From the NCBI GenBank assembly GCA_030621085.1, contig JAUXIJ010000001.1, forward strand, positions 9,809-73,808: a DNA stretch of 64,000 nt, written 5' to 3'. Below, one piece after another: positions 11,121 to 58,403 of this stretch. The notes under the pieces are model-generated. The model was given only the letters and a program-made list of their open reading frames with translations, was not told the origin of the DNA and did no database searches. Both the position numbers and the translations under genes were made by a program. Source of the DNA: Candidatus Cloacimonadota bacterium (GTDB taxonomy: Bacteria > Cloacimonadota > Cloacimonadia > Cloacimonadales > TCS61). Numbering within the stretch: position 1 is the stretch's first letter; each line of letters begins with the position of its first letter.

Positions 11121-11153
11121 TAATAATATAATAATATAATCAGGAGGATTTAA

Positions 11154-18483: not shown

Positions 18484-18519
18484 TTTCTCCTCCTTTTTAC
18501 TTTGATACCAACTTATAGT

Positions 18520-18535
18520 AGCAATACAGGTTCCA
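18520..18535 (-). promoter_or_regulatory. Candidate sigma-54 (-24/-12) promoter
   Basis: The minus strand reads TGGAAC-CTGTA-TTGCT, against the consensus TGGCAC-N5-TTGCW. GG/GC spacing is exact. The element ends 36 nt upstream of the ATG at 18483. Confidence 0.5.
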
Positions 18536-18633
18536 AATGAAAACAATCTAATATTAAGAACTCTAATTAACTATTTGATAAAAGGTTATGCTTCAATAAT
18601 GTGTTGATTTCTATCTTCTGTTCCGGTTTGAAA

Positions 18634-34281: not shown

Positions 34282-34302
34282 TTTTCCCTCCCCCAAAAAG
34301 GA

Positions 34303-36408
34303 TTATTCTTCAGGAATTTTCATTCCGAGCATATTCATCAAAAAAGCCCAGGTATCTGCAGTTCTTTCAATTTGCATCGAGAGAGTTGTACCGCCGCCAT
34401 GACCGGAATCTTTTTCTAATAAAAGCAGAATCGGTTCTACATTTGGATTTGCGTTCTGCATTCGGGCAACCATCTTACGGGAATGAAACGGATCAACACG
34501 AGCATCATTCTCTCCCGCTGAAATAATGATAGCCGGATAGTTTGTATCATCTACTATATTGTGATACGGTGAATATTTATAGAGATATTTGAATTGTTCA
34601 GGATTATCAGCGCTTCCATATTCATCTATCCAATATCTGGCAGGACCGAACTTATGATAGCGGATCATATCGAGAAGAGGAACTGCACAATTTACTACTT
34701 TGAATAATTCGGGTCTTTGAACCGTTACAGCTCCCACCAGAAGACCTCCGTTACTTCCGCCTGAAATCGCCAGTTTTTCTGGATTTGTATATTCATTTTC
34801 AATCAGCCATTTAGCAGCAGCAATAAAGTCATCAAACACATTTTGCTTATTTTCCTTCATTCCTGCTTCATGCCATTTTTCTCCATATTCCCCGCCTCCG
34901 CGCAGATTGGGAATTGCCAACATGCCTCCAGCTTCTAACCAGACAATACTCGTTGTTGAAAAAAAAGGAGTTTGTGAATAGTTGAATCCCCCATAACCGG
35001 AAAGTTTTACGGGATTGTTCCCATTTTTTTCCAAATCCTTTCTGTGAACAAGAAACATTGAAACCGGTGTTCCATCTTTGGAATGATACCAGACTTGCTC
35101 AGCAGTGAAATCCTCAACATCTATTTCCAATGGGAATTCTTTATAAATATCTAAATTATCATTTTGAAAATCATATTTGTAAGTAACACTTGGATAAGTA
35201 AACGAGGAAAAATTTACCCAGATATCATCTTGCGACCAATAACCACTGACATACCCGGTTCCGAGGGTTGGAAAAGATAGATCCCGGATATAATCACCTT
35301 CCAGAGAATATATTTTGATAACCGTGTAAGCGTTGTGCTGATATACTGCATAAACATGCCCGGCGATCGCATTGACATAATGGAGTTTATCTTTTTGTCC
35401 CAGCAAAAATTCCTGCCAGAATTCTCGCTGCGGATGATCAACATCCGTAATATACACTTTCCCGTTCGGAGCATCTTTATCTGTCTTTATCAGGATCTTA
35501 TCATCCACAATATCTACGAAATAAGAAGCGTCAAACCCGGTTGCGATCGGAATCAGTTCTTCCTCTCCAAAATGTTTGAAATAGATTTCATTCTTACGGA
35601 AAAATCCACGATAAAAAACAGTATATTTTCCACATTCGGAGATCCAGACACCATGATGCATTTCCTTTTTATCTTTACTGTAGTAAATTTTTTCATCTTC
35701 GTCTGCCGAAGTTCCCAGCTTGTGGAAGTAGATCGAACCCCAGTAATTTTCTTCTCCTGGGGGAACTTCTCCTTTTAAGGGACCAGCTGAATAATAGAAG
35801 CCAGAGTTATCCGGCAGCCAGGATGAAACATATTGCTTTCGACCTCTCAAAGTGTCCGGTAAAATTCTTTTTGTTTCAACTTCAATGATCCTGACGACAG
35901 GATTTTCATCTCCACCCACAGATTTTCCAAAAGCATAATACCTGCCATCACGAGAGGAACTTGTTCCATGTAACGATTCTTTCGGATCCCACAGATTTGG
36001 ATCAATTAAAACCTCAAATTCCGCATCTTCATTTTCTTTGGTAAGAATTCTCCATTTTTCATCGTCTTTGCGTTTCTCCCATAAAAAGATTCTCTCTCCA
36101 TTTAATACTTTGCTCGGTTTGCCGATATCGTCATAACGCCAAAGTTCATTGAATCTTTTTACCAGTTTTTTTCTCTGTGGAAGGCTATCCAGGATCGATC
36201 TTGTATATTTCTCCTGTTCTTCTTCCCATTTGATAACTTCGGGATTTTTTCCATGTTCCAGCCAACGGTAATTATCTGTAATAACGGTGCCGTGAAGTGT
36301 ATCTTTAACTGCTATTTTAGGAGTTTCGGGATATTGCATTTGAGCTGAAACCTCCTGGATGGGAAAAGTTAAAGATAATACTACAATAAGTAAGTGAATT
36401 TTTTTCAT
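34303..36408 (-). CDS. Prolyl oligopeptidase (S9A family), secreted/periplasmic
   Basis: I chose the ATG at 36408 (MKKIHLLIVVLSL... signal peptide). Catalytic Ser in ISGGSNGGLLVG, Asp in GENDARVDP, His in DSGHGGG. N-terminus DNYRWLE is typical of PEP. Confidence 0.9.
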   Translation of the reverse strand: MKKIHLLIVVLSLTFPIQEVSAQMQYPETPKIAVKDTLHGTVITDNYRWLEHGKNPEVIKWEEEQEKYTRSILDSLPQRKKLVKRFNELWRYDDIGKPSKVLNGERIFLWEKRKDDEKWRILTKENEDAEFEVLIDPNLWDPKESLHGTSSSRDGRYYAFGKSVGGDENPVVRIIEVETKRILPDTLRGRKQYVSSWLPDNSGFYYSAGPLKGEVPPGEENYWGSIYFHKLGTSADEDEKIYYSKDKKEMHHGVWISECGKYTVFYRGFFRKNEIYFKHFGEEELIPIATGFDASYFVDIVDDKILIKTDKDAPNGKVYITDVDHPQREFWQEFLLGQKDKLHYVNAIAGHVYAVYQHNAYTVIKIYSLEGDYIRDLSFPTLGTGYVSGYWSQDDIWVNFSSFTYPSVTYKYDFQNDNLDIYKEFPLEIDVEDFTAEQVWYHSKDGTPVSMFLVHRKDLEKNGNNPVKLSGYGGFNYSQTPFFSTTSIVWLEAGGMLAIPNLRGGGEYGEKWHEAGMKENKQNVFDDFIAAAKWLIENEYTNPEKLAISGGSNGGLLVGAVTVQRPELFKVVNCAVPLLDMIRYHKFGPARYWIDEYGSADNPEQFKYLYKYSPYHNIVDDTNYPAIIISAGENDARVDPFHSRKMVARMQNANPNVEPILLLLEKDSGHGGGTTLSMQIERTADTWAFLMNMLGMKIPEE

Positions 36409-36425
36409 GATTTTTTCCTTTATAA

Positions 36426-37229
36426 TTATTTTTTCAAACACCATTGTGCTGCTTTTTTCATCAGATCCCAATCCGAACCGTAATCATTAATTTTTTCTAC
36501 AGCCGGTGATCCATCCCGCTCGCTGTCTTCTTCAAATTCCGGATGAGTTCCGATGATAAATACTCTACCCATCCCGTATTCGAATGCCGCAATAGAGGGT
36601 TGATCGCTGATTTCGTATCTGCCTAAGATTTCTATTTCAGCACCTTCGTTTGGCAGGAACATCGGACCATAACAATAACATATCCAAGTTGTATCAGATT
36701 CGGGTTGAGTGATGGGATGAGATGTGTTAACTATATTTATTTTGCACATTTTACAGTTAGGAAAAGGAGCGATCTCATCGATAGGTCCCCGGGTTATTCC
36801 CGGAAATATCGCCAGAGAATTCATGGGCAGTTGATTTCCCTGCCAGAAGATTTTTTCGCCTGTAAAATATGCTCCCCCGCAGATTCCGATATAGCCTCCA
36901 CCGGTACGGATAAAATTCCTGATCTTTTCCAATCCTTCAGTAGAAATATTCTGTGAATATTGATACATATCGCCACCGGGGAAACAGATTATATTGTACT
37001 TTTCAAGAATAGTATTATTAACTGAATCTGCATCTATCAATGTAACGTCATAACCCATCCATTCGAACATTTTAGTTGTTGAAAGAACGCATCTTTTATC
37101 CGCACCTTTTTCGGAATAAAGAGCAATTTTGGGGATGCTGTTTCCGGTCTGTTGAAATTGACAAGCAGGGATAAACAGTAAAATAAACAAACTGATAATA
37201 TAGAATTTAAATAACTTTTGGTTTGGCAT
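36426..37229 (-). CDS. BPL_N / class-I glutamine-amidotransferase-like domain lipoprotein
   Basis: GGAGGA RBS. Lipobox LFIPAC|QF. Motif GGGYIGICGGAYF, typical of BPL_N (GATase1-like) proteins. Confidence 0.6.
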   Translation of the reverse strand: MPNQKLFKFYIISLFILLFIPACQFQQTGNSIPKIALYSEKGADKRCVLSTTKMFEWMGYDVTLIDADSVNNTILEKYNIICFPGGDMYQYSQNISTEGLEKIRNFIRTGGGYIGICGGAYFTGEKIFWQGNQLPMNSLAIFPGITRGPIDEIAPFPNCKMCKINIVNTSHPITQPESDTTWICYCYGPMFLPNEGAEIEILGRYEISDQPSIAAFEYGMGRVFIIGTHPEFEEDSERDGSPAVEKINDYGSDWDLMKKAAQWCLKK

Positions 37230-45032: not shown

Positions 45033-46358
45033 TTGAAACAGATATTCCTGCTCCTTACTTTCCTGGCTATCGGCAGCGGTCTTTTAGCCGGTCAGTTGAA
45101 TATTACCATCGATTCCAACAGGTTCCTGGATGAAAAAGGCAACACCATCTTTGAAATAAATTATCAGATCCCCTATAAAGATTTGAAATTTGCCAGAACT
45201 GAACAGGGATTTGTGGCCAGGCTGAAAGTAGATTTTGCTCTCAGTAAAGGTGAAAAAACAGCTTACCATGATGATTTTGTTAATAAAATTATTATGAAGG
45301 ATGCAGCAACTGCCGGCTCTTCCTGCTTTTTCTCCGATAAGATCATTCTTACTCTGGCCGGATCCGGCTATCTCTTAACGGTTATCTTCAGCGATGAAGA
45401 GGCTGATAAATCTATCGATTATAACCATGAATTGAATATTCTGCCTAAAAATACTTTGCTGAGTGAGATCGAATTTCTCTTTGATGTAGTAGACGATTCC
45501 ACAAAATTGCATGAGAAATTTCACCGTGATGGAAAGCTGTTTTTTTTGAACAGCTCTCATATTTATACACTTCCGGAAAATGACAGACTCTGGCTCTATT
45601 ATGTTTATTATCCGCCCCCTGACTCAACCGGCTTGTTTTTCGAGACGATAAAAATAAAACGTAAAGAGCAAACCATCCTGGAATCAGTTGCAGAAATACA
45701 GATATCCTATTCAGCAATACCGATCACTAAACATCTGGATATCAGCCACCTGGAAGAGGGTTATTATGAACTTGTCATCAGCTCAGGATTTGACAGCCTA
45801 TTGCAGAAAGAGATAGCACACGATTACTTCAGCATCAGAAAGGAGAAGGTCTTTTCGCAACGGCTTTTTATCGATCTGGAAGATGAGTTCATGCTGCTCA
45901 AATATTTTCTTACCAGCAAACAAACCTCAACCTGGAAAACTCTGACCGAGCAAGGTAAAATCAACTTTCTCAACAGATTCTGGTCTGTCAATGATCCCGA
46001 TCCGACTACCGGGAAAAATGAATTTCTGCTCGCAGTAAAAGAGCGTGTCGATTATTGTAACAATAAATTTTCCTACTTTAAAGAGGGCTGGAAAACCGCC
46101 CGGGGCAGGATATATATCAAACATGATGAACCCGATGAGATCATCAAGCTGCAAACAGGTATTACTGCCAAATACGCTCAGAAAGATTACCAGATCTGGA
46201 AATACAGAACTGACACCGAACTGACCTATATCTTTATCGATCTGCACACCAGCGGTAACTATCGGCTGATATATGTGGAAGATGATGATACGGAGAGTAG
46301 TGATCCGAAATGGCGGATCTATCTGGGAGAAGATTTTGATCCGGGATTACTGGAATAA
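45033..46358 (+). CDS. GWxTD domain-containing secreted protein
   Basis: TTG start 13 nt after dnaE. Signal peptide. C-terminal FW...DP...N.......R..Y.N..F....EGWKTARGRIYIKHDEPDEI...YQIWKY matches the GWxTD domain pattern. Confidence 0.7.
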   Translation: MKQIFLLLTFLAIGSGLLAGQLNITIDSNRFLDEKGNTIFEINYQIPYKDLKFARTEQGFVARLKVDFALSKGEKTAYHDDFVNKIIMKDAATAGSSCFFSDKIILTLAGSGYLLTVIFSDEEADKSIDYNHELNILPKNTLLSEIEFLFDVVDDSTKLHEKFHRDGKLFFLNSSHIYTLPENDRLWLYYVYYPPPDSTGLFFETIKIKRKEQTILESVAEIQISYSAIPITKHLDISHLEEGYYELVISSGFDSLLQKEIAHDYFSIRKEKVFSQRLFIDLEDEFMLLKYFLTSKQTSTWKTLTEQGKINFLNRFWSVNDPDPTTGKNEFLLAVKERVDYCNNKFSYFKEGWKTARGRIYIKHDEPDEIIKLQTGITAKYAQKDYQIWKYRTDTELTYIFIDLHTSGNYRLIYVEDDDTESSDPKWRIYLGEDFDPGLLE

Positions 46359-46939: not shown

Positions 46940-47314
46940 TTATTCTAAAACAGATGTAAAGGCATCTTTGAAATGCTGGATCTTGGTTGAGTCTGGTTTT
47001 TTCAGAACAACAATGAGATCGAAGCGGGTAAAGTTGTCTTCATACTGATGATTTTGGGATAGAAAAAAGGAAGCGGTTTTGGAGAGTTTTAGTTGTTTGG
47101 CATAAGATACGCTGCTGAGGGCGGAACTCAGATTCGAAGTACGTGTTTTTACTTCCAGGAAAACCAGCAGATCGTCGTCCAGGGCAATTATATCGATCTC
47201 TCCATATTGGGAATAATAGTTACGATGAATGATTTTATAACCAAAGGAATTAAGGTATTCAGCAGCCATATCCTCTCCCGATTTGCCCATTATAGCCGTA
47301 TTTACATAATCCAT
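46940..47314 (-). CDS. yraN: YraN-family (UPF0102) endonuclease-like protein
   Basis: GEDMAAEYLNSFGYKIIHRNYYSQYGEIDIIALDDDLLVFLEVKTR, the typical YraN motif. Confidence 0.85.
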   Translation of the reverse strand: MDYVNTAIMGKSGEDMAAEYLNSFGYKIIHRNYYSQYGEIDIIALDDDLLVFLEVKTRTSNLSSALSSVSYAKQLKLSKTASFFLSQNHQYEDNFTRFDLIVVLKKPDSTKIQHFKDAFTSVLE

Positions 47315-47386: not shown

Positions 47387-48388
47387 ATGAAAAAAACTAT
47401 TTTGTATTTAATTTGTGTGATGCTGTTTTATTCTATCGCACTTTTATCCATGCCCTATACAGCCATGGGTAACATAAACATTCCTGATGCCTATGTGCTT
47501 CCTCACATGATGGTGGATTTCTCCTACACGAACTATTTCGTGAGCGATGGCAATATTCCATGGGTTACTGATACTACCGGTACCAGTACTAGGTACAATG
47601 AGTACGATTTTGCAGGTGGCCTCAGGATAGGACTGTTCGACATGGCGGAGCTCGGGCTGGTCTACACTAATACTGCGGGTGTATTCGGTAATTTGAAGGT
47701 GCGGATCATCAATGAAACGGAGTCCCTGCCGGCTCTCTCTTTCGGCATATTGAATCTCTTCTCTTCCGTTTCCGACTTTGAAAAGATCGATATACCGGAA
47801 AAATACGATTACACTGATCCGGTTGATTATATCAGTAACTCTCCCTACCTGGTGGTCAGTAAATCCCTGGTCATCATCACCGGTGTGCCGATCATGGACT
47901 ATCTGGAGACATCCTTTCATTTCGGGATGGGACAGAGGAAGTTCCACGGTAAGGGTGAGACCGTCAAAGGTTTTGGCGGTACTTTCGGCGGTATCGATGT
48001 AAAGCCTTCCCGCTACTGGGGCTTCGATCTCGAGTTTGACAGCCAAAACCTCAACTTCGGGCTTAACGGCTTCTACAAGAACTTTACATTACGCGTGGGA
48101 ATGTACGAAGTGGAAGACTTCCTGGGTATCAAGGGAGATGAGGGCAGTAATAAGCTGGCGATCAATCTGAAATACACACTGGATCATTTCTCAGAGATGA
48201 AAGCATCCGAAAAGAGGAAGAAAACCATCAGCCAACGTAGCAGGTCGATGGAAAAAACCACTCCGGAAGAGGTTGAAACTTACGATGAAGATAGTAATCC
48301 GCTTCGGGACGAACTCGAACAGATCAGAAAACGCAGAAAACAAGCTGAAAAGGAACTGGAAGAGATCCGTAAACTTCTGCAAGAATAA
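47387..48388 (+). CDS. Hypothetical outer-membrane protein with a charged C-terminal coiled-coil tail
   Basis: I chose the ATG at 47387 (MKKTILYLICVMLFYSIALLS signal peptide). The body is beta-strand rich. The tail is K/E/R-rich: ...EKRKKTISQRSRSMEKTTPEE...ELEQIRKRRKQAEKELEEIRKLLQE. Confidence 0.55.
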   Translation: MKKTILYLICVMLFYSIALLSMPYTAMGNINIPDAYVLPHMMVDFSYTNYFVSDGNIPWVTDTTGTSTRYNEYDFAGGLRIGLFDMAELGLVYTNTAGVFGNLKVRIINETESLPALSFGILNLFSSVSDFEKIDIPEKYDYTDPVDYISNSPYLVVSKSLVIITGVPIMDYLETSFHFGMGQRKFHGKGETVKGFGGTFGGIDVKPSRYWGFDLEFDSQNLNFGLNGFYKNFTLRVGMYEVEDFLGIKGDEGSNKLAINLKYTLDHFSEMKASEKRKKTISQRSRSMEKTTPEEVETYDEDSNPLRDELEQIRKRRKQAEKELEEIRKLLQE

Positions 48389-48400
48389 TAATTGTAACTT

Positions 48401-50422
48401 ATGAGAAAAATACTTTTTTCGTTAATCTTTACTCTCATTCTTGTGCAACTGGTTGCGCAAGATGATATTATGTCTATCTTGAAACCACAGGAGAAAAAAA
48501 AACCTCTGCTGCAACAATTGAAAGAAGAGCGCAGGGAACTGGCCATCCTGGAAGAAGAGATAACATATTTCTATAACCTGTTGCAGCAAAGAGCGGGTGT
48601 GCGCAAACTCTATAAAAAAGGAAAGGTCAGTGATCTGAAGAAAGTATTTTCCAAGAATGTAAAGGTTATGGACAGGATGTTCGAAGAGAACCGTCTGGAA
48701 GCTCTCAGCTTGAAGATAGGAGAACAGAAGATCATCTACGGCGATGTAGTTGAACTTCAGGATCAGATTCTTTTTTATCGTGCGAAACTGGCTTTTATCA
48801 AGAAAAATAATAAAAAAGCACAGAACCTGCTCGAGGATTTGGTAACGAATTACCCCCGGTCAGAAAGACTGAATCCCGGGCTGCTGATCCTGCAAGAGAT
48901 CTACTTCAGAGATGGTCGTGATGAACAACTGATCACCTGCTTCGACAATTATGCTGGAAAGATCAGCATAAAACAGAACTACTGGCTGGCCCACGCTTAC
49001 TTCAATGTCGGGAAATATGAGGAAGCTTTAAGCATCTTTAAAGTACTGTCTAAAGATAAAGAGTTCGGCTTTCGGGCTAAAGCCATGCAGGCCATGATCG
49101 CTTACTTTACGGATGGTATCGATACAGCAATAGAGAAATTTAAGATTCTCGAAGAACGTTACGGAGCAGGAACGGATTATTATGATTTTGTAATTCTTTC
49201 TCTGGCCCGACTCTATTCCGCCAGTGACGATATTGACAAGGCATTAAATCATTATGAAGATTACAGAAATATACACAATAGGAAAATGAGTGATGAATTA
49301 CTATACGAAATTGCTCTGCAATTCTACACTAGCCAGAATTTTGATATAGCCATTAGTTATTTCAACGAGATCGTAGAGAAAGAGGTTAAGAGTGAATACT
49401 TTGCTTCGGCAAAATTCCTGGTAGCTGTTTCCGAGCAGGGGCGTGGCAACTTTGATCAAGCTGAAAACACCTTGACCGAGATCATAAGCCGCAATAATAT
49501 CCTCCTGGAAACAATGAATACAAAATACAGATTACTGGCAAAATACAATGAAACTCGCCGGGAACTGAGCGGTTTGGATGTTCCTGCGGAAGAGATCGAA
49601 GCTCTGCAAAAAAAGGCAGATAACATTGAAGTGGCACTGCAAAGTACAAATAGTACTATGCAGGAACTCTATACAGGTCTTGATCCTGTATCGCTGGAAC
49701 TCCTGCAGCTGCTGGAAGAAGAATATCTCTCCTACAGCAATACCATTGCCGATATCGAAGCAATAATCCTACTGGCAAACACGATTCCCAACAAGAGGAT
49801 CCCGGCTATTATCGACCGGGAAATTGCCTCCACAGATTCCTCGATCGTAACCTTGCAAATACTGAACTACCTCGGTCACAGACCCAGGTTTACCTATAAG
49901 GACTATGATTTTGCCAGGGCTCTGGCCACAGAAAAAGTTTATCAGGATAACCTGCTGAAAACCTGGCATGAGATCGAACAGATAGCCATAGCCAATAATC
50001 ATGAGGAGATGGTTCAAACAATACGAGAATCCAGGCAACTGGTAGAAGAAAACCTCGAATCTATCGAAGTTATTGCCCAATACATGTTCAAAGGAAAACC
50101 CTCTGATGAATTCCAGCAGATCATCCAGGAGGAGTCTGAAGCTATCGATAAAAACAGGGAAAACCTGATCTCCCTGAAACAGGAAGTAATTGAGAATTTT
50201 AATAAACAGATAGCCCGGAGATTGAGTAAGGAAAAAGAAGTCCTGGTGGCTGAATTCCAGTCGCTTAATCTCTCTTATGATAAAGCTCTTGCTATTATCA
50301 TGACAGAAGTTACGGTAGAGAACGAGAAGTATCAGTTCAGTCTCTTGGGAGTACTTTTCAAGCAGACTCAAATCATAGACGAAGAGTATCAGGAATTTCA
50401 GGAAAAACTTAGAAATGAATAA
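48401..50422 (+). CDS. Secreted TPR-like / coiled-coil protein (673 aa)
   Basis: Signal peptide MRKILFSLIFTLILVQLVAQ. TPR-like helices (LAHAYFNVGKYEEALSIFKVL, IALQFYTSQNFDIAISYFNEI). The C-terminal half is a long coiled coil. Confidence 0.6.
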   Translation: MRKILFSLIFTLILVQLVAQDDIMSILKPQEKKKPLLQQLKEERRELAILEEEITYFYNLLQQRAGVRKLYKKGKVSDLKKVFSKNVKVMDRMFEENRLEALSLKIGEQKIIYGDVVELQDQILFYRAKLAFIKKNNKKAQNLLEDLVTNYPRSERLNPGLLILQEIYFRDGRDEQLITCFDNYAGKISIKQNYWLAHAYFNVGKYEEALSIFKVLSKDKEFGFRAKAMQAMIAYFTDGIDTAIEKFKILEERYGAGTDYYDFVILSLARLYSASDDIDKALNHYEDYRNIHNRKMSDELLYEIALQFYTSQNFDIAISYFNEIVEKEVKSEYFASAKFLVAVSEQGRGNFDQAENTLTEIISRNNILLETMNTKYRLLAKYNETRRELSGLDVPAEEIEALQKKADNIEVALQSTNSTMQELYTGLDPVSLELLQLLEEEYLSYSNTIADIEAIILLANTIPNKRIPAIIDREIASTDSSIVTLQILNYLGHRPRFTYKDYDFARALATEKVYQDNLLKTWHEIEQIAIANNHEEMVQTIRESRQLVEENLESIEVIAQYMFKGKPSDEFQQIIQEESEAIDKNRENLISLKQEVIENFNKQIARRLSKEKEVLVAEFQSLNLSYDKALAIIMTEVTVENEKYQFSLLGVLFKQTQIIDEEYQEFQEKLRNE

Positions 50423-53400
50423 TATCACAGGCAGAAAGTTAACTTTTATTATTATAATATCGTTGCTGGCAGTGGCAGGAATTACAGCCCAGGATGTTGT
50501 TAACGAAGTAAATACCCAGTTGCAGGAAAAGTTTAATAAAAAGATCGCCTACAAAAAGGATGTTTATCAGAAAACCTTAAGATTTATTAATGAAAATCCC
50601 AATTCACCGGGCTTATCCACTCTCTATTTTAATCTTGCTGAAATGAGCACGGAAATCGATATTCATAATCCATCCATAACGGCCGGATTTTATAAAAAAG
50701 TGTTGGAAAAAGATAACAACTTCCTGCAAAAAGATGCTGTTCTTTATAATATCGGTTACTATGGCTTCACTTCGGAAGTTTACCAGCGCGATGAAGCCAG
50801 ACAGAGAAATATCGATCTGGTCATGAACTGGCCCGATTCCCTGCGTTTAACTGAAGAAAGGCTGCAGTATGTACTCGATGTCTACAGGCAGGTCTGGGAA
50901 GATTTCCCGGAATCGAGCTATAATACCGAAGCAGGTTACAGACTGGGAACGGTTTACTTTGAGATCGCTCTCGATACCCGTGTTCCTCAGGAATATTATG
51001 AAAAAGCTATCTACTATTTTAACCTGGTTTCGAAGAAAGAAAACGATGCCCTGGCACATTATGGTCTTTTCCAGAGAGCCTGGACCTATTTTGCCAGTGC
51101 CAACTTCACAAAAGCTATTGAAGATTTTACCCTTATTCTTCAAATCATCCATCTCGATTCCCTGCAAATAGAAAAAACCTTCTTTGAAGCAGATGCTATC
51201 GAAAATATAGCTTATAGTTTGATCGAATATGACGGTACCGATTTTGAACAATTCTCCATGGCTGCTGATAAAGCAAAGGAGATATTTCATAGCTTTGTAA
51301 GCAAGGAATATGGTAAGGAAGTAATCCTGAAATCGATCGAGCTGAAGCATAAATACAACGCACCGATGCAGGCAGTGGATCTTTACAACGCCTATCTTAC
51401 CCTCTATCCCGAAGGACTTAACTGTCCCCTTTTCGCAGATTCCATCATGACCATCTACAAGCGCAATCCAGCCAGAACCAGAGGTGGTGTTGCCGCGGAA
51501 GAGTTGATTATTGATGAGTATATTCGCCTGACAAAAGAGTTCAGAGTCGATTCCCCCTGGTTCCAGGGCAATGCGGAGGTTGATAAAACACCGCAACTGG
51601 CTGTGATTCGAGAAGCATATGAATTCATGGAACCGAAATATTATAACAACTTCGCTCAATCTGCAGATGAAAGTGATTATCTTATATATAAAGATCTTGT
51701 GGAAAATTATTGCCTCTATGATGCTTTCAGGGATGAGGACGGTTCCAAACAGATGGAAAACATGCGTAAGAATGTGATCGACTTCAGTCAGGATATGGCT
51801 GAATCCAGCCAGGATCCCCGTCTCTATTTTGCTGTAATAACCGATATCAATACATTTATCGAAAGCTATCCTGAACATCCAGCCCTGCAGGAGTACAAGG
51901 AAACAGAATTCTACAATCATGAACAGATCTATAATATTCTAGAACCTACCATCGAAGATAGTGCTTATGTGGATACGGTGAATAATATCACCCTCGATAA
52001 AGATGATCTTGATTCTCTTTTTGTGATGGCGGCTCGGAAATATGAAGACTACCTGACCACTGCTGCCACCTCCAGTAAGACTATAGAAACAGAGCTGATC
52101 CGCATCGTTTACCAGCGTGCCGAACTGAATTATGCACGTAATAAATTTGAGGAAGCATACAACGATTTCATCAGACTGCAGAACTATGCTATCAATAATG
52201 AGATAAAAAAGATATCTTTTGCCAGATTGGCCGAGATCAGCCAGTCCCGCAATGATTACAGCGGAGCAGAAAACTATTATCGGGAAGCTAGCAAGTATGC
52301 CTCCGATGAAGAAAAACAGGTCTATAACAATAACATCCTGGCTACCATGCAGACCAAGGCTAATACACTGGCAGATTCAGCGGATTATATCTCTGCTGCC
52401 CAGGAATATTTGCGGCTGGCTGCTGAGATCGAAAATGAAGATCTGGAAAAGAGCATGGGCTTCATAGTTAAGGCTATAGAAAGTTACCAGCAGGCCGGAG
52501 AAAATCAGACAGCTATTGATCTTTTCCTGGATATTGCTGCCAAAAAGGATGATAAAAATGATATCCTGGCAGCTTATATCAGCGCCTGGACCATCTCCGA
52601 CAGCCTGCAGGATTGGGAGCAGAGCGAAAGACTCCGCAAGCAGTTTATTAATAAATTCAAAGATTCCAACGAAGCTTATAAACTTCGTTTGCAGATAATT
52701 GGTTTTTATGAAGGTGAGCAGTTCAACGATAAAGAACGTGCTGCCGATATGTACCTGCAGCTTCATGATGAAGCAGATCAAATGGATATTGGCGAAGATC
52801 AAAAAGAGAGCATTTTCTTAAATGCCTATCGCATTTATAACGAACTGGGCAATGAGAATATGATCGTGGAACTGTGTCTTCGCTTTGAAAAACTCTATCC
52901 CTCTCATCCCAAAGCCAATGACTTCCTGATCAGGATCGCCAAGATCTATAATGACCGGGGAGAAGAGCAGAAATTTGAAGAATTGGCTGCCTACCTTTAT
53001 AAGAAAGATCCCACCATCGATCTCTTTATAACTATTGCCGCTGAGAAATTGAAAGAGATCAAAACCGAAGTTGACAGCCTTTTCGAATCCGAACAATATA
53101 GTAAAATGTTTGCCAGCATAAAAGCTTTCAAAGCGGCTGATGAACATTATAGAGATAAAAATCTACTGCTTCCTACAGAGGCGATTTACGAAGCTTTCGA
53201 TTATTACGATAATTACATCACTTTCCATAATCGCTTTGAGGAAGAGTTGAACAGGATCGAAGTCAGCTTTCTGGCTTCTACACCAGATGAACTGCTGCGT
53301 GTAAACGAACTGACGGAATGGAAGAACCACCTTACGGACGGCAAGCGGCGTATTCCCAAACTTCTGGAGCAATGCGATGCTCTGAAAACAGATGTGATCG

Positions 53401-54857
53401 CGCTCATCCAGGAAGGAAACAATTTTGGACTGAAACCGGAAAATAGAACCCGAGCTTTATATATTGGGGGAAAAATATATGATCATGGAGCCAATGTTGT
53501 TCAAAAGCAGATCCAGAAATATATCGATGTCTCCAAACAGTTGAATAATGAACAGATGCAGGCTAACCCTGTGCAGCAGAAACAGTATAAAATGGCCATC
53601 AACAATAAAGGAAATGAATTCGTGCTGACCTTTCTCAAGAAGGGTGTTCAACTCTACAATACCCTGCTCGCTACCTTCTATGATGGTAAAGATTATTCTG
53701 ATCAGTGGACCGACTTAGCCAATGAAAGATTGGTAGAATTGGGTGTTCGAAAACCGAAAGTGCTCGAACATATTTACACAAATTCTGCCTGGGAAGTAAA
53801 TAAAACAGCCATTAGTGATCTATCTGCAAGTAACGTAAACAGTGCTTCCTGGAATGCAGCGCAGATAGCTCCCCAGTCCACTGTTTTTGATTCTGCCCGG
53901 GTAATTTTGGTACCACCCCGACAGGAGATGTATCTGAAAAGGGAATTTACTGCAGAAATAAAACCGGAACTGATTACTTTCGATTATGCCTATGACAAAC
54001 CGGTCGAAGTGTATTTGAATAATGTGCTGGTAGAAAAAGCAGCAACTCTGCGGGAGGATTTTATTAAAGTGAATAATGTGCTGACTCCGCATTATTCAAT
54101 TATTTCCTCCAAGAATATGAAATCCGGCATGAACAATATTATTATAAAAATAGCGGTGGATTCAACAGCTGTCGATCCAACTCTGTTCAGTTCTTTCATT
54201 ACCCTGCAGTATGATAAGGAAAAACTGGAGATCGCCAAAACTACCGAAAAGAAAATCCTGCTGTCTGATTACAGCTGGCTGACCAGGAAAGATGACTTTG
54301 CGCTGGAAGAGGAAACTTCAAATATTGAAGAAGAAACGGCAATTACCGACACCATGCCGGCAGACACCCTAGCCTCTACCCAGGTGCAGGCGGATAGTAT
54401 GGCAGTAGATCAGGAAGAAGCAGGCTGGAAAATAGCTGGTGCCAGCAACTTCCAGTTCTTCAAGGCTCAGATGTTCGGTCTGGAAAGCAGTGGGGCGCTG
54501 GATATTTGGCATCCGGTGATTGATTCTAATAATGTAGAGACAGTATATTTTAAAAAGGATATCGATCTCGATGGTGATGTAATCCAGGCTCATGCTAAAT
54601 TAATCGGTCAGAATAGTGTAACACTCTGGGTGAATGATGAACTGGTGATAGCTGATCAGGGATTGATCGTGGATGACAGGTTGAAAAAGATACAATCTCA
54701 CGAGGTCAGCATTAGCCAACTGAAACCCGGGAAGAATACCATACTGGCAAAAGTTGTAGGCGGTAGAGAATTCAAGGGCTTTATCTTTGAAATGAATTAT
54801 ACTATCAAGAAAACAATAATAAATTCGGAGATAGATAATCCGGGTATCTCAGAATGA
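50415..54857 (+). CDS. Giant secreted TPR-rich protein (1480 aa) with a beta-rich C-terminal region
   Basis: The start overlaps the previous stop by 8 nt. Signal peptide LTFIIIISLLAVAGITAQ. Many TPR-like hairpins over ~1100 aa (YRLGTVYFEIA, YEKAIYYFNLV, FQRAWTYFASANFTKAIEDF, ...). The last ~350 aa are beta-sandwich-like. Confidence 0.65.
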   Translation: MNNITGRKLTFIIIISLLAVAGITAQDVVNEVNTQLQEKFNKKIAYKKDVYQKTLRFINENPNSPGLSTLYFNLAEMSTEIDIHNPSITAGFYKKVLEKDNNFLQKDAVLYNIGYYGFTSEVYQRDEARQRNIDLVMNWPDSLRLTEERLQYVLDVYRQVWEDFPESSYNTEAGYRLGTVYFEIALDTRVPQEYYEKAIYYFNLVSKKENDALAHYGLFQRAWTYFASANFTKAIEDFTLILQIIHLDSLQIEKTFFEADAIENIAYSLIEYDGTDFEQFSMAADKAKEIFHSFVSKEYGKEVILKSIELKHKYNAPMQAVDLYNAYLTLYPEGLNCPLFADSIMTIYKRNPARTRGGVAAEELIIDEYIRLTKEFRVDSPWFQGNAEVDKTPQLAVIREAYEFMEPKYYNNFAQSADESDYLIYKDLVENYCLYDAFRDEDGSKQMENMRKNVIDFSQDMAESSQDPRLYFAVITDINTFIESYPEHPALQEYKETEFYNHEQIYNILEPTIEDSAYVDTVNNITLDKDDLDSLFVMAARKYEDYLTTAATSSKTIETELIRIVYQRAELNYARNKFEEAYNDFIRLQNYAINNEIKKISFARLAEISQSRNDYSGAENYYREASKYASDEEKQVYNNNILATMQTKANTLADSADYISAAQEYLRLAAEIENEDLEKSMGFIVKAIESYQQAGENQTAIDLFLDIAAKKDDKNDILAAYISAWTISDSLQDWEQSERLRKQFINKFKDSNEAYKLRLQIIGFYEGEQFNDKERAADMYLQLHDEADQMDIGEDQKESIFLNAYRIYNELGNENMIVELCLRFEKLYPSHPKANDFLIRIAKIYNDRGEEQKFEELAAYLYKKDPTIDLFITIAAEKLKEIKTEVDSLFESEQYSKMFASIKAFKAADEHYRDKNLLLPTEAIYEAFDYYDNYITFHNRFEEELNRIEVSFLASTPDELLRVNELTEWKNHLTDGKRRIPKLLEQCDALKTDVIALIQEGNNFGLKPENRTRALYIGGKIYDHGANVVQKQIQKYIDVSKQLNNEQMQANPVQQKQYKMAINNKGNEFVLTFLKKGVQLYNTLLATFYDGKDYSDQWTDLANERLVELGVRKPKVLEHIYTNSAWEVNKTAISDLSASNVNSASWNAAQIAPQSTVFDSARVILVPPRQEMYLKREFTAEIKPELITFDYAYDKPVEVYLNNVLVEKAATLREDFIKVNNVLTPHYSIISSKNMKSGMNNIIIKIAVDSTAVDPTLFSSFITLQYDKEKLEIAKTTEKKILLSDYSWLTRKDDFALEEETSNIEEETAITDTMPADTLASTQVQADSMAVDQEEAGWKIAGASNFQFFKAQMFGLESSGALDIWHPVIDSNNVETVYFKKDIDLDGDVIQAHAKLIGQNSVTLWVNDELVIADQGLIVDDRLKKIQSHEVSISQLKPGKNTILAKVVGGREFKGFIFEMNYTIKKTIINSEIDNPGISE

Positions 54858-54867
54858 GAGGTGAATT

Positions 54868-55128
54868 ATGAAAAGAATAGTGATTTTGTGCATATTAATT
54901 ATATTTATTTCCTCTTTGCTGGCGCAAACCACAAGCAATCAAAGCACCAAATCGGCCAAGTACAAAAATCTCAAAAAACTGAAAAGCGAAGCTGAAGAGG
55001 ATGCAAAAATTGAGATCCGTAAACCGGATAATGCTGCACTGATGCCACGCACTCAGACGGATTACAGTTCCGATATGAAATTGAATGTTATAGATAAATT
55101 TAAAAAATCCAATAAATTACTTTACTAA
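54868..55128 (+). CDS. Small secreted protein (86 aa)
   Basis: GAGAGGTG RBS and signal peptide MKRIVILCILIIFISSLLAQ. The mature part is K/S-rich. Confidence 0.45.
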   Translation: MKRIVILCILIIFISSLLAQTTSNQSTKSAKYKNLKKLKSEAEEDAKIEIRKPDNAALMPRTQTDYSSDMKLNVIDKFKKSNKLLY

Positions 55129-55140
55129 GGGAGGTAAGTA

Positions 55141-55866
55141 ATGAGTAGAAGTCTCAGATTATTATTGCTGGTTATTTTATTATTCAGCGTAAGCAGTCTT
55201 TCTGCTGCTGTCAATGTAGTCGATATGTTCGTACAGGGTGGTGTGTTCATGTACATCATCTCTTTCTTATTGATCGTGATGCTCATTATGTCGATTATCA
55301 AGTACTGGCAACTCACAATTAAAGAGAAACTGGACACCAAGAAATTTTATCTTAAATTGAAAGGTTATATTAAAAATAACCAGACGGAAGAAGCGATCCG
55401 TATCAGCTCTCAATTCAAGAAGACCACAATCGGTTTTATTTTCTGGAACGGTCTGCTGGGCTATAACGACGGCTTGAAATCCGGTAAGAAAGGCATGGAA
55501 CTGCAAAAACATCTGCAGAACTCTTTTGATGAAGCAGGCTTGCAGGCAATTCCACATGTGGAAGCAGGTTTATTCTGGTTCGATATTATCGCCCAGGTTT
55601 CCACATTGCTGGGTCTGCTGGGAACTATCTTTGGTCTGGTAATATCCTTCGACGCTATAGCCCATGCACCCGAAGCCGATAAGAGCCGGATGCTTACAGC
55701 AGGTATTTCCATGGCTATGGGAACCACAGCCTACGGTTTGATGGTTGCTATTCCCACCATGCTTATCAAAGGTGCTCTGCAGGCAAGAGCTCAGAAAATT
55801 ATCAATGACATTGACGAGTATAGTGTAAAAACGATAAACCAGATAACCTACGCTATGAAGGATTAG
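55141..55866 (+). CDS. MotA/TolQ/ExbB-family proton channel
   Basis: GGGAGG RBS. Three TM segments. Conserved motif: VSTLLGLLGTIFGLVISF...MAMGTTAYGLMVAIP. Confidence 0.85.
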   Translation: MSRSLRLLLLVILLFSVSSLSAAVNVVDMFVQGGVFMYIISFLLIVMLIMSIIKYWQLTIKEKLDTKKFYLKLKGYIKNNQTEEAIRISSQFKKTTIGFIFWNGLLGYNDGLKSGKKGMELQKHLQNSFDEAGLQAIPHVEAGLFWFDIIAQVSTLLGLLGTIFGLVISFDAIAHAPEADKSRMLTAGISMAMGTTAYGLMVAIPTMLIKGALQARAQKIINDIDEYSVKTINQITYAMKD

Positions 55867-55870
55867 TATT

Positions 55871-56377
55871 ATGGCATACGGTCCATCCCAAAACAGGACG
55901 GGATCTCAGCAAGAACATCGAGAACCTAATCTCATTCCCATTATGAATCTCTTCATAGTTATCATTCCCATGTTAATGACCATCATGGTCTCTGTACATC
56001 TGGCGATGATAGAGATAACATTGCCTGCTCAGTCTGCTGGTGGTGGTAACGGTGAAGAAGCTGAAGAACAGGTGGAAGATCTACCTAAAATGATAACTTT
56101 AGCCCTTTTTCCTGATCGTTTCGAGATCATGGTAGAAGGTGATAAAGGAGTTACTGAGATTCCACAGTTGAGCCCGGGTCGACATGATTTTGTTACTCTT
56201 GATAAGAATATAGCCGAACTTAAATTAGTACACGAAAAACAGGGCACAATAGAAGTACTACCTGATCCTACAGTAAGGTTCGATACACTGCTGCGTTCGA
56301 TCGATATATGCAAGAGCAACGATTTCCCGAATATAAAATATCTTACAGCCTTAACCAAATACTACCGAGCAAAATAG
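55871..56377 (+). CDS. ExbD/TolR-family protein (copy 1)
   Basis: N-terminal motif EPNLIPIMNLFIVIIPMLM (single TM), followed by a periplasmic domain. Confidence 0.7.
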   Translation: MAYGPSQNRTGSQQEHREPNLIPIMNLFIVIIPMLMTIMVSVHLAMIEITLPAQSAGGGNGEEAEEQVEDLPKMITLALFPDRFEIMVEGDKGVTEIPQLSPGRHDFVTLDKNIAELKLVHEKQGTIEVLPDPTVRFDTLLRSIDICKSNDFPNIKYLTALTKYYRAK

Positions 56378-56386
56378 GAGCGTAAT

Positions 56387-56923
56387 ATGAAACGAGCATC
56401 AGTAAAAGTAGATAGATCAGCCGGGAGTTCCGGATTTACAAGACGCTCGCGCGGTAATAAAACAAGAGACCTTAACATTACTTCACTTATTGATATTCTG
56501 ACAATTCTACTGGTTTTTATGATAAAGAACATCTCCATGGATGCCAGCCAGAAAAATGCTCCCGAAGGCATGCTGCTGCCAACAACCGTTAGCAAGAATG
56601 AGCTGATCGAGAGTGGGAAAGCTGTTTTCGTGAAGATCTACACAGATAAAATCCTCTATGGTGCAGAAAATATTCCGATTGGATCGTTGCAGGATTTTAT
56701 CAGCAGCCAGGAAACCAGACAATCTCTTCTCAGGTTATTACAGATGGAAGCGAAATCGATAATGGCAATGCACAGCCAACCATGTCTATTGATCCAGGCG
56801 GATAAGGATCTACCGTGCAGATATATCACGGAATTCATAAAATTCAGTGCCCAGGCTTCATTTGCCAACATCTATTTTTCTACTATTCATTCCGAGAACA
56901 AAGAAGAAGTATTGGGTATTTAA
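56387..56923 (+). CDS. ExbD/TolR-family protein (copy 2)
   Basis: AGGAG RBS. Motif LNITSLIDILTILLVFMI (single TM), followed by a periplasmic domain. Confidence 0.75.
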   Translation: MKRASVKVDRSAGSSGFTRRSRGNKTRDLNITSLIDILTILLVFMIKNISMDASQKNAPEGMLLPTTVSKNELIESGKAVFVKIYTDKILYGAENIPIGSLQDFISSQETRQSLLRLLQMEAKSIMAMHSQPCLLIQADKDLPCRYITEFIKFSAQASFANIYFSTIHSENKEEVLGI

Positions 56924-56935
56924 AAAGAGGTGGCT

Positions 56936-58360
56936 ATGGCAGAAAAAATATTAAATTTGAAGCTTAAATATAAAGATAAGATCCTCGATATTGCCAGACA
57001 GAAAAGAGATTTTACCGGTTCTTTTATCATCGGAAGTAGTAAATATATCTTCTGGCAGATTCTGGATAAGGCTTTTCCTGATAAGTATTCACTTATCAAC
57101 AAAAGCGGCTCATCCTACAAGCTGAAACTGCGCGAGGGCATGGATATAACGATCAAAAAGAACAATCAGGAACTGACAAAAGATGACCTGCGGAGAGCAA
57201 ACCTGCTGAAGGGGAATACATTAACAATGGATCCATCTACTATTGGGGCAGTAACTTTTGGGGAAGATTGGAAGATAGAGTACAATTTCATAGAACCCTA
57301 TAGATATGTTGCTACCAGGGAAGAATTGACCATTGCCAAGCAGTTTGCCAAAGCCAGTCCTCTTTCACCGCAGGAAAAATTTACCAGGATTTTTGTAATC
57401 CTGGGTGTGCTGGCTACCTGGATAGGTCTTTATATTGCAGAGAGTAACTATGTACCTCCTGTGAAATTAAATTTCACAGAACGTCTGCAAATGATCGAAG
57501 AATATGCTACTCAGGTACAAGCTGAAGTAACCGAAGAGGTGGTCGGCCCTACTGAAACCGGACCAAAAAGCCGGGAAGAGATGGAAGAAGAAGTTACCGA
57601 GCAGGTCGAACAGGCCCAGGCTATGTCGTCTGCCGAATTTGAACAAGAGTTCGGTCTTACCCTGGGTGACGGCATAAGCGGTATGCCCGGCGGAGAGGGA
57701 GTCGGTGATTTCAGCAATGAACTTCTGGAAGTTACGGAAGTAAGTGAAATCGTTGTTGCCGGTACGGGACCCGGAACAGGTAGCGGACCGAAAGCCACTA
57801 GGGGAGCCAGTGATCTGGATGTAGCCGGAGCCGGAGGATTTGATCTGGAAGGAGTTGGAGACGGATTGGGTGATATCGGTGGTCTGGAAGGGCTCGATCT
57901 GGGCGGAACCGGTGGCTTTGAAGAAGTTGACCTGGCCAGTCTGGGCGGTGATGTAGGAAGTTACAACGTTACCAAGGTAGAGAGTAAAGCTCAATTCCAG
58001 GCTGTTAAAAAGCGTTTTGCCGGTATCAAGATGGTGAAAGAGGGAACCATCAAGATCGAAGAGATGACTCCTGAAGCAAAAACAGAACTGGCTAATATCG
58101 ACAACGTGGTGAGTACCTATAAACCGCAGATCACCAAACTGTTCACCGTGGAATCTATGCTAATGGACATGTACGGCACGATTGAATTTTCATTGATCAT
58201 CAGTGCTTCGGGTAGGGTAGAAGCGGTTGATATGGAAGTGGCTGATGGCAGCTATTTCACAGATAATTTCCTGAGGAAATGCCGTCAGATCATTCTCAAC
58301 TGGAAGATTAAAGTGAAAGAACCTATCGGCTACAGTTTCCGTATGAAGTTCTATAAATAA
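56936..58360 (+). CDS. TonB_C / AgmX-like bitopic protein (cytoplasmic N-domain, TM, acidic Gly-rich linker, TonB-C-like domain)
   Basis: I chose the ATG at 56936, 5 nt after AGAGG. TM segment IFVILGVLATWIGLYIA. Linker GGFDLEGVGDGLGDIGGLEGLDLGGTGGFEEVDL. C-terminal ~90 aa: ...MYGTIEFSLIISASGRVEAVDMEV...NFLRKCRQIILNWKIKV..., TonB-C-like. Confidence 0.6.
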   Translation: MAEKILNLKLKYKDKILDIARQKRDFTGSFIIGSSKYIFWQILDKAFPDKYSLINKSGSSYKLKLREGMDITIKKNNQELTKDDLRRANLLKGNTLTMDPSTIGAVTFGEDWKIEYNFIEPYRYVATREELTIAKQFAKASPLSPQEKFTRIFVILGVLATWIGLYIAESNYVPPVKLNFTERLQMIEEYATQVQAEVTEEVVGPTETGPKSREEMEEEVTEQVEQAQAMSSAEFEQEFGLTLGDGISGMPGGEGVGDFSNELLEVTEVSEIVVAGTGPGTGSGPKATRGASDLDVAGAGGFDLEGVGDGLGDIGGLEGLDLGGTGGFEEVDLASLGGDVGSYNVTKVESKAQFQAVKKRFAGIKMVKEGTIKIEEMTPEAKTELANIDNVVSTYKPQITKLFTVESMLMDMYGTIEFSLIISASGRVEAVDMEVADGSYFTDNFLRKCRQIILNWKIKVKEPIGYSFRMKFYK

Positions 58361-58373
58361 TAATATATCAAAT

Positions 58374-58403
58374 AAAAGCCCTCTTTGCCGGAGGGCTTTT
58401 TTT
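58374..58403 (+). terminator. Rho-independent terminator
   Basis: AAAAGCCCTC / GAGGGCTTTT 10-bp stem, loop TTTGCCG, then a T-run. Confidence 0.75.

Follow-up and report, generated by a model that had tools for sequence, protein, structure and literature searches.

A stretch of 64,000 nucleotides from a metagenome-assembled genome (MAG) of Candidatus Cloacimonadota (contig JAUXIJ010000001.1), which whole stretch we here refer to as the window, contains on its + strand, between positions 47387 and 58360, an operon of eight genes that is probably the form taken in Cloacimonadota by the Agl-Glt core complex, a machine that spans the cell envelope and runs on the proton-motive force. The genes encode, in this order, an outer-membrane (OM) beta-barrel protein, two large secreted tetratricopeptide-repeat (TPR) proteins, a small secreted protein, a MotA/TolQ/ExbB-family channel, two ExbD/TolR paralogs, and a bitopic transducer with a TonB-like C-terminal domain (CTD). 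A preliminary description, made from the letters of the window, had listed these eight products as a co-directional series with tiny gaps or overlaps, and had likened the set to the Agl-Glt and Nfs machines of Myxococcus rather than to a plain TonB or Tol-Pal locus. The open reading frames (ORFs) were all confirmed on the + strand at the coordinates of Table 1, and the list of products held up in the Pfam and NCBIfam searches and in the structure models; the homology of the transducer to GltG together with the matching set of core genes supports the likeness to the Myxococcus machines.

Gene set, conservation, and relatives of the operon

The core complex as defined by Luciano et al. (2011; PMC3169522) comprises aglR, aglQ, aglS, gltD, gltE, gltG, and gltC, which genes constitute their Group B. 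GltD is there a 1191-aa TPR protein that bears a signal peptide, GltE and GltC are TPR proteins of 471 and 673 aa, GltG carries FHA and TonB_C domains, and GltF, an 89-aa protein with a signal peptide, is encoded between gltE and gltG (PMC3169522). Those authors found the core genes in one cluster in Gamma- and Betaproteobacteria, in Geobacter, and in Fibrobacter succinogenes, and judged them insufficient for motility (PMC3169522). For F. succinogenes their Table S3 gives Fisuc_1892 (a 746-aa TPR protein, the GltC homolog), Fisuc_1893 (a 1292-aa TPR protein, the GltD homolog), Fisuc_1894 (ExbB), Fisuc_1896 (ExbD), and Fisuc_1897 (a 308-aa TonB-family protein, the GltG homolog); the order from Fisuc_1892 to Fisuc_1897 in strain S85 is TPR-TPR-ExbB-ExbD-ExbD-TonB. 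Raut et al. (2019; PMC6851124) placed FSU_2396, of the OmpA family, and the TPR proteins FSU_2397 and FSU_2398 in a cellulose-binding multiprotein complex, described FSU_2400-2403 as an ExbB/ExbD/ExbD/TonB operon, and listed these genes as all more abundant in cellulose-grown cells. From the order, names, and sizes, Fisuc_1892-1897 and FSU_2396/2397-2403 are probably the same genes.

Because its layout is the same as that of the Fibrobacter cluster, we assign the Cloacimonadota operon to the core-complex kind. Both are single operons in which a TolQ-like channel is encoded together with two distinct TolR-like proteins and a bitopic transducer whose TonB-like CTD is of the GltG/PglI type; in both, moreover, two large secreted TPR proteins are encoded just 5' of the motor (746 and 1292 aa in Fibrobacter, 673 and 1480 aa in Cloacimonadota). 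Both clusters also have the gene of an OM protein at the 5' end, though the Cloacimonadota protein is a barrel ending in a coiled-coil tail and the Fibrobacter protein belongs to the OmpA family; and whereas the Cloacimonadota transducer has one FHA-like domain, the Fibrobacter homolog is just 308 aa long. With respect to the core complex at large, the operon has two TPR genes instead of three, carries an Asn for the transmembrane (TM) Asp in TolR paralog 1, and is vertically conserved throughout the phylum, while the core of Luciano et al. is patchy or horizontally transferred.

With the Agl-Glt and Agl-Nfs systems of Myxococcus xanthus the operon shares a stator of the AglR5-AglQ-AglS type, an OM barrel, and a GltG-like transducer in which an FHA domain adjoins the TM helix and a disordered linker in the periplasm leads to a TonB-like CTD; by size, it also shares a GltD-like TPR pillar, a GltC-like TPR protein, and a GltF-like secreted protein. 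In contrast to those systems the locus has no recognizable GltE, and neither it nor its 10-kb flanks contain GltI, GltJ, GltK, GltA/B/H, the CglB adhesin, or the MglA/AglZ module; in addition, there is one FHA-like domain rather than two, and the matches to the equivalog models all fall far below the cut-off. These differences bear on the possibility that the operon encodes a true gliding or surface-translocation engine propelling the cell, as Agl-Glt does, in favor of which one may cite the relationship with the Agl-Glt core and a host with surface proteins of the T9SS (type IX secretion system) type. We know of no report of gliding in Cloacimonadota, however, and with the GltI-, GltJ-, GltK-, CglB-, and MglA/AglZ-type components missing from the locus we hold such an engine to be very improbable. 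Luciano et al., moreover, argued that motility is not driven by the core on its own, which they found in non-gliding bacteria as well (PMC3169522).

The conservation of the operon was surveyed by scanning genomes, one per species in GTDB, with the family of the transducer (476 aa in its longer form), a search that returned 80 loci, all of them from Cloacimonadota. The ORFs around those loci were then compared by phmmer, and in every locus with enough flank the order was OMP-TPR-TPR-small protein-ExbB-ExbD-ExbD-transducer (OMP, outer-membrane protein), down to protein identities of 25%, with priA usually the next gene after the operon. This conservation of gene order is far above chance. The operon was present in every sampled Cloacimonadota genome, mostly in single copy. 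In a distant clade of the Cloacimonas/Cloacimonadaceae type the two TPR genes form one ORF of 1930-2130 aa, collinear with the 673-aa plus the 1480-aa protein, which in-frame fusion (a Rosetta stone) implies that the two TPR proteins work together. The co-occurrence of the TPR and TonB_C-like proteins with the motor genes in related genomes, on which the preliminary description had staked its proposal, is thus evident from both the 80 syntenic loci and the fusion.

A second paralog of the transducer, at 29% identity, was encountered at positions 9833-11341 of a contig of the MAG SMBSF05 (JAIOQZ010000058.1; locus L041). At the ORF level no motor or TPR genes lie alongside it, and the same genome carries the full operon elsewhere (L031).

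Outside Cloacimonadota, a few TPR proteins about 1000 aa long were matched by the profile of the 1480-aa family, at E-values from 2e-11 to 8e-7. Their contigs (loci L083 and L084) are high in GC and probably belong to another phylum of the Fibrobacteres-Chlorobi-Bacteroidetes (FCB) type; a SusC/SusD pair is found close by. In L084 the order is a 407-aa OMP with a coiled-coil tail, a 243-aa coiled-coil protein, a 751-aa TPR protein, a 1014-aa TPR protein, a small secreted protein, ExbB, ExbD, ExbD, and the transducer, the contig ending within this last gene. A full-length transducer, of 356 aa and devoid of an FHA domain, is supplied by L083, the big TPR protein of which shares 76% identity with that of L084; the CTD of this transducer matched the AgmX/PglI model NF033768 at 54 bits, above the cut-off, and matched the GltG model as well. 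The hhalign comparisons support homology of the Cloacimonadota OMP with the 407-aa OMP of L084 (probability 89.9, E 1.7e-6), and of the 1480-aa family with the 1014-aa TPR protein over some 380 N-terminal columns (probability 98.4, E 5e-15).

A Glt-type core is, then, already on record for the FCB group, in Fibrobacter, and is not new there; what is new is the strict vertical conservation of a core-type operon in one phylum. Specific to the phylum are the Asn/Asp pair in the stator, the single FHA-like domain, the coiled-coil-tailed barrel, the non-TPR C-terminal domains of the scaffold, and, in one clade, the TPR fusion.

Transducer, motor, barrel, and scaffold proteins

The AlphaFold2 (AF2) model of the transducer has a confidently modeled N-terminal beta domain (residues 7-121), a TM helix (~147-172), a disordered region (193-352) that is first acidic and then Gly-rich, and a C-terminal domain (381-474) with an alpha-beta-beta-alpha-beta fold, TonB-CTD-like and of the AgmX/PglI type. 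The top Foldseek matches of that model were TonB CTDs (6sly, 9dc4_T, 7zc8, 6fip, 1u07, and 2gsk_B; TMt 0.5-0.63), of which 7zc8 and 6sly also appear, with similar E-values, in the fold assignments that Cambillau and Mignot made for GltG and GltJ (PMC11761067); an FHA domain, 5w7x, was matched as well, at a probability of 0.98. Within the family, NF033768 (the AgmX/PglI C-terminal domain) was matched by 23 of the 26 members, Pfam TonB_C by eight, and tolA_full, weakly, by two, all the matches being weak; and a sequence-profile search of the PDB with the family gave nothing above noise. Against 1.84e9 representative proteins the family profile produced 157 matches in total. Among the weaker near-full-length ones we scanned 20 members of one alignment (A5) plus two further proteins (P0379 and P0388), and every one of them matched NF033760, the gliding_GltG model, with a best E-value of 1e-59 and, where the span was reported, over model positions ~190-650, which correspond to the membrane-proximal FHA domain, the TM helix, and the CTD; the 20 alignment members all matched NF033768 too. 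In hhalign the transducer family aligned with these GltG-like proteins at a probability of 99.9 (E 8.3e-33, residues 6-189). As judged by these profile comparisons, the transducer is a remote homolog of GltG, not an equivalog: the folds and the transitive profile homology together recover the GltG-type arrangement of an FHA domain, a TM helix, a disordered linker, and an AgmX/PglI-type CTD. The earlier identification of a GltG/AgmX-type TonB-C protein hence stands with regard to the GltG-like homology and requires correction in the naming, since PglI is GltG and AgmX is GltJ.

A metagenome scan with one of the GltG-like proteins (P0345) returned no relatives. The search of representative proteins also brought up two in which an AgmX/PglI-type CTD is fused to other modules (P0343, 693 aa, and P0337, 660 aa); one of them is a TPR-PD40-OmpA protein resembling PorE/CHU_0125, the C-terminus of which matches the family profile (E 1.5e-11), and the other a Ser/Thr kinase ending in such a CTD (NF033768, E 1.4e-8).

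The FHA-like domain is degenerate, in that the residues usually binding phosphothreonine are not evident from a reading of alignment A1; we would thus expect for it a docking rather than a phosphothreonine-reading role, which role agrees with the predicted contact between the central FHA domain of GltG and the AglR pentamer.

The TonB-like fold of the CTD, with some of the matching structures being receptor-bound, the weak TonB_C match in part of the family, and a gene order like that of Ton operons all suggest an alternative in which the locus is an ordinary FCB-type TonB-ExbB-ExbD system with two ExbD proteins, energizing receptors encoded elsewhere and having the TPR proteins and the OMP as accessories. 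TonB systems with two ExbD proteins occur, for example, in Bacteroidota and Xanthomonas, and share with the operon both the order ExbB-ExbD-ExbD-transducer and the CTD fold. Raut et al. read FSU_2400-2403 of Fibrobacter as a Ton system (PMC6851124). Several features nevertheless make this alternative improbable. The transducer of the window has no Pfam TonB_C match; its linker is acidic and Gly-rich instead of forming a Pro-rich rod; and its TM helix, FTRIFVILGVLATWIGLYIA, contains on reading neither a His nor the SHLS-type motif whose role is described in PMC12204202. Lacking a Pro-rich spacer and a His in the TM helix, the protein is not a classical TonB. Furthermore, the N-terminal FHA-like domain is a feature of GltG, the motor proteins score better against TolQ and TolR than against ExbB and ExbD models, and the obligatory linkage with giant TPR scaffolds, in one clade fused, and with a dedicated OMP is not a trait of Ton systems. 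Finally, no TonB-dependent receptor was found within 10 kb in the two Pfam-annotated loci nor among the ten large upstream ORFs of the window that were scanned.

The channel matched PF01618 (MotA_ExbB) at 4.2e-23, and an AglR-like channel of this kind is present in all the loci. Its best NCBIfam model was tolQ (2.1e-19), above the exbB models and below the cut-off. The motifs of TM helices 2 and 3, namely LGLLGT (162), GTT (195-196), and P205, are nearly invariant, T162 and T196 being present in 75 of 75 sequences and T195 and P205 in 74. The two TolR/ExbD genes beside the channel, a counterpart of the aglQ and aglS pair of the core, constitute separate orthologous groups, of 77 and 80 sequences. 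Paralog 1 (PF02472, 1.1e-7) has N26 in all 77 orthologs; its NLIPIMN segment aligns with what we take to be the corresponding segments of Escherichia coli TolR (NIVPLLD) and ExbD (NVTPFID), so read from the sequence. The TM Asp so replaced is the canonical, essential, proton-carrying residue of ExbD and TolR. Paralog 2 (PF02472, 9.3e-9; TolR TIGR02801, 2.9e-5) has kept it, as D36, in 79 of 80 orthologs. With an Asn in the one paralog and an Asp in the other, we predict the stator to be an obligate heterodimer in which just one site can be protonated. The asymmetry is specific to the phylum, because in the related high-GC clusters both paralogs retain the Asp. On the model scores of the channel and of paralog 2 the motor is closer to TolQ/TolR than to ExbB/ExbD. 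Zorya and other MotAB-like defense systems were considered for this motor and dropped, the ZorA match of 0.058 being noise and ZorC/D-like genes not being found.

The OMP carries a signal peptide and models as an OM barrel of 12-14 strands followed by a helical tail: the AF2 model (pLDDT [predicted local distance difference test] 72, pTM [predicted template-modeling score] 0.63) has 14 strand segments between residues 47 and 269 and helices at 274-289 and 309-336. Foldseek against the PDB found a COG4313 channel (1.7e-5), FapF, KdgM (TMt 0.63), and a designed 12-strand barrel. In sequence its homologs were confined to Cloacimonadota, with a PF06082 (YjbH) match in some. The C-terminal coiled-coil tail (residues ~274-337) is strongly conserved; since about a quarter of the invariant columns lie in its last ~25 residues (E313-L335, consensus EELEQIRERRKQAEKELEEIRKLLQE), that tail is likely an interaction module.

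The 673-aa protein matched several TPR families of Pfam and, weakly and below the cut-off, the YbgF/BamD-type TPR models (5.6e-11); its C-terminal half is long and helical or coiled-coil. The 1480-aa protein by itself is only weakly TPR, though most of its orthologs among the matches listed carry TPR hits in Pfam, and its C-terminal ~380 aa, a non-TPR region, gave in a sequence-profile search of the PDB one match, at E 0.14. The preliminary description had compared these two proteins with GltD and GltE; their sizes and positions fit GltC, to which the smaller is equal in length, and GltD instead, this likeness being one of size and position, with TPR matches of the generic type. The 86-aa protein has kept its place in all clades, and in the distant clade its orthologs are 90-103 aa long with the common motif KPD...(K/R)T(D/Q)T.

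Of the operon's four secreted proteins, three, those of 673, 1480, and 86 aa, have a Gln directly after the likely signal-peptidase site (VA-QDD, TA-QDV, and LA-QTT, respectively), which recalls the "Q-rule" of Bacteroidetes. That rule concerns the substrates of signal peptidase I and reportedly does not hold across the whole FCB group (PMC5837995).

The most serious competitor of the Glt-type reading is that the operon serves as a functional equivalent of Tol-Pal, tethering or constricting the OM at division with the coiled-coil OMP in place of Pal and TolB. As in Tol-Pal, the motor would be proton-driven and of the 5:2 type, and TolQ and TolR are the models that its proteins match best; the transducer is bitopic with a CTD of the TonB/TolA family and in two of 26 members a weak tolA_full match; TPR units of the YbgF/CpoB type are found in 12 of 14 members of the 673-aa family and seven of 17 of the 1480-aa family; and the operon is universal, mostly single-copy, and located among housekeeping genes such as dnaE and priA. 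In addition, the Bacteroidetes, likewise a T9SS-bearing FCB phylum, have no identifiable tol-pal loci (PMC12204202). On the other side, the tolQ, tolR, and ybgF matches all fall far short of the curated cut-offs, the N-terminal domain of the transducer is FHA-like and its CTD of the AgmX/PglI type, in place of TolA domains II and III, and the two TolR paralogs, the giant TPR proteins, and the dedicated OM barrel set the locus apart from Tol-Pal, as does the absence of TolB, Pal, and YbgC from within and beside it. Fibrobacter, moreover, with its equivalent cluster, has a separate, clustered Tol-Pal (PMC8871954). On balance we regard a Tol-Pal equivalent as unlikely.

Against the assignment to the Agl-Glt core there weigh, in turn, a number of observations. 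The transducer of the window reaches 18.9 bits with NF033768, under the curated cut-off of 40, and has neither a TonB_C nor an FHA match in Pfam, while the FHA-like domain is degenerate as described above. NCBIfam scans of both TPR families yielded generic YbgF/BamD-type TPR models and nothing specific for Glt; two TPR genes are present as opposed to the three of the proteobacterial core, the third being missing from every locus; and hhalign gave no significant alignment between the 673-aa family and L084's 751-aa TPR protein. Lastly, the equation with the Fibrobacter cluster is drawn from gene order, sizes, and names as published.

Operon boundaries, neighborhood, and host

Adjacent genes of the operon overlap by up to 8 nt or are separated by up to 12 nt (Table 1). 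Because the upstream gene lies on the opposite strand and a strong intrinsic terminator, beginning 14 nt past the stop codon of the transducer gene, lies downstream, the eight genes are a cleanly delimited operon; the spacers, the divergent upstream gene, the terminator, and the synteny concur in placing all the components in one cluster, as in the Agl-Glt core.

Table 1. Positions and remarks for the operon genes and the terminator in the window.
Feature	Position	Strand	Remarks
Outer-membrane beta-barrel protein	47387..48388	+	333 aa from ATG 47387; ORF opens TTG 47375 (337 aa)
Secreted 673-aa TPR protein	48401..50422	+	GltC-like by size and position
Secreted 1480-aa helical-repeat/TPR scaffold	50415..54857	+	GltD-like by size and position
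Secreted 86-aa protein	54868..55128	+	Signal peptide; size and position of GltF
MotA/TolQ/ExbB-family channel, 241 aa, AglR-like	55141..55866	+	PF01618
ExbD/TolR paralog 1, 168 aa	55871..56377	+	PF02472; N26 replaces TM Asp
ExbD/TolR paralog 2, 178 aa	56387..56923	+	PF02472; TM Asp D36 kept
GltG-like bitopic transducer	56936..58360	+	474 aa from ATG 56936; 476 aa from 56930
Intrinsic terminator	58374..58400	+	11-bp stem, 5 G-C pairs, then T run

Upstream of the operon are dnaE, a gene for a GWxTD-domain protein (45033-46358; TIGR04514, 1.4e-22), and the divergent neighbor (46940-47314, - strand), which reads as a YraN/UPF0102-type gene and whose counterpart in a syntenic locus (L001) matched PF02021. 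Downstream follow priA, with PriA domains of Pfam in syntenic loci, and genes read by eye as of the methionine-salvage type. The GWxTD gene, the YraN/UPF0102-like gene, and priA recur in L001, L021, L042, L047, and other loci, so that the synteny exceeds the eight genes. As the preliminary description had noted, no TonB-dependent receptor and no Pal or TolB gene belongs to the locus; its authors had named, as one ground for giving up their proposal, that the cluster be the only Tol-Pal equivalent of the organism, with tolB and pal immediately outside it, and in the flanks, where the neighbors are those just named, TolB, Pal, and YbgC were looked for and not found.

The host is a Cloacimonadota MAG, and the closest genomic locus (NIOZ-UU2) has a protein identity of 94%. 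Two secreted proteins of the window carry Por_Secre_tail/CHU_C sorting domains of the T9SS (16654-18546 and 23911-26421, both on the - strand), with PKD domains in the one and beta-helix plus BNR-like domains in the other, which confirms the T9SS-bearing host proposed earlier. A literature search on Cloacimonadota found nothing relevant on TonB, Tol-Pal, T9SS, or gliding.

Three further genes or gene pairs of the window may be mentioned. The first encodes a 1150-aa protein composed of a Ser/Thr protein kinase, an AAA_16 ATPase, and TPR_12 (18707-22159, + strand), a STAND-like signaling protein, which may matter because the transducer has an FHA-like domain, albeit without the usual phosphothreonine-binding residues. 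The second specifies a 509-aa protein in which an OMP beta-barrel is combined with TSP3 repeats and an OmpA domain (11154-12683, + strand), a predicted peptidoglycan-binding OM protein that could be the local tether of the Pal/OmpA type. The third, an unusually long gene (31108-34296, - strand), encodes 1062 aa with an N-terminal zinc-ribbon and a PF13941 "MutL" (glutamate-mutase-associated) domain, and adjoins a prolyl oligopeptidase gene (34303-36471), which pair fits an amino-acid fermentation.

Proposed mechanism and biological meaning

While the gene content, the operon structure, the phylum-wide synteny, the folds of two of the proteins, and the homology of the transducer with GltG-like proteins are observed, the stoichiometry of the subunits, their contacts, and the cellular output are inferred by analogy, the templates being the AlphaFold model of Agl-Glt and the 5:2 motors; on that basis we propose the following mechanism. 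A TolQ-like pentamer would surround a heterodimer of the 168- and 178-aa ExbD proteins (ExbD168/ExbD178), rotating around it or being gated by it with one protonatable Asp; that stator pentamer would in turn bind the transducer at the TM helix and at the FHA-like domain next to the membrane. The disordered linker of the transducer, of ~160 residues, might then cross the peptidoglycan and periplasm, so as to let the TonB-CTD-like head dock, by beta-strand addition, on a platform consisting of the 1480-aa, 673-aa, and 86-aa proteins, where the 86-aa protein would possibly give a beta-strand to the transducer CTD as GltF does for GltG. The platform, for its part, would hang below the 12-14-strand OM barrel, probably via the conserved coiled-coil tail. 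The work of the motor would in this manner reach the OM, where, instead of serving nutrient import, it would most likely move, organize, or release material associated with the surface or the OM. Mechanical work on such material is, on that analogy, the most likely output; we judge OM tethering or constriction to be the main alternative output and TonB-dependent uptake a minor one.

One may go further and conceive of the operon as an ancestral, vertically inherited FCB form of the Glt-type machine, serving as the main or only TolQR-class motor of the cell through an obligately asymmetric TolR heterodimer with one protonatable Asp, and either replacing Tol-Pal or conveying surface material delivered by the T9SS along the OM; this extended proposal we put forward as a doubtful one.

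The strict conservation of the operon, nearly always in single copy, throughout an uncultured phylum argues for a basic role in the envelope that belongs to the core itself. Recognizable relatives of that core occur in at least one other nonproteobacterial lineage and, according to the literature, in Fibrobacter; and an operon conserved phylum-wide argues for a core of greater age and broader inheritance than one would gather from the distribution first described, which was patchy and due to horizontal transfer. The operon further offers a compact, eight-gene version of the core for structural modeling, while its natural Asn/Asp stator heterodimer bears on the use that 5:2 motors make of their two proton sites. 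The present assignment would also correct what is likely to be the default annotation of such loci, as a TonB/ExbBD uptake system; the Cloacimonadota operon would instead be related to the core complex out of which the gliding machine of Myxococcus evolved.

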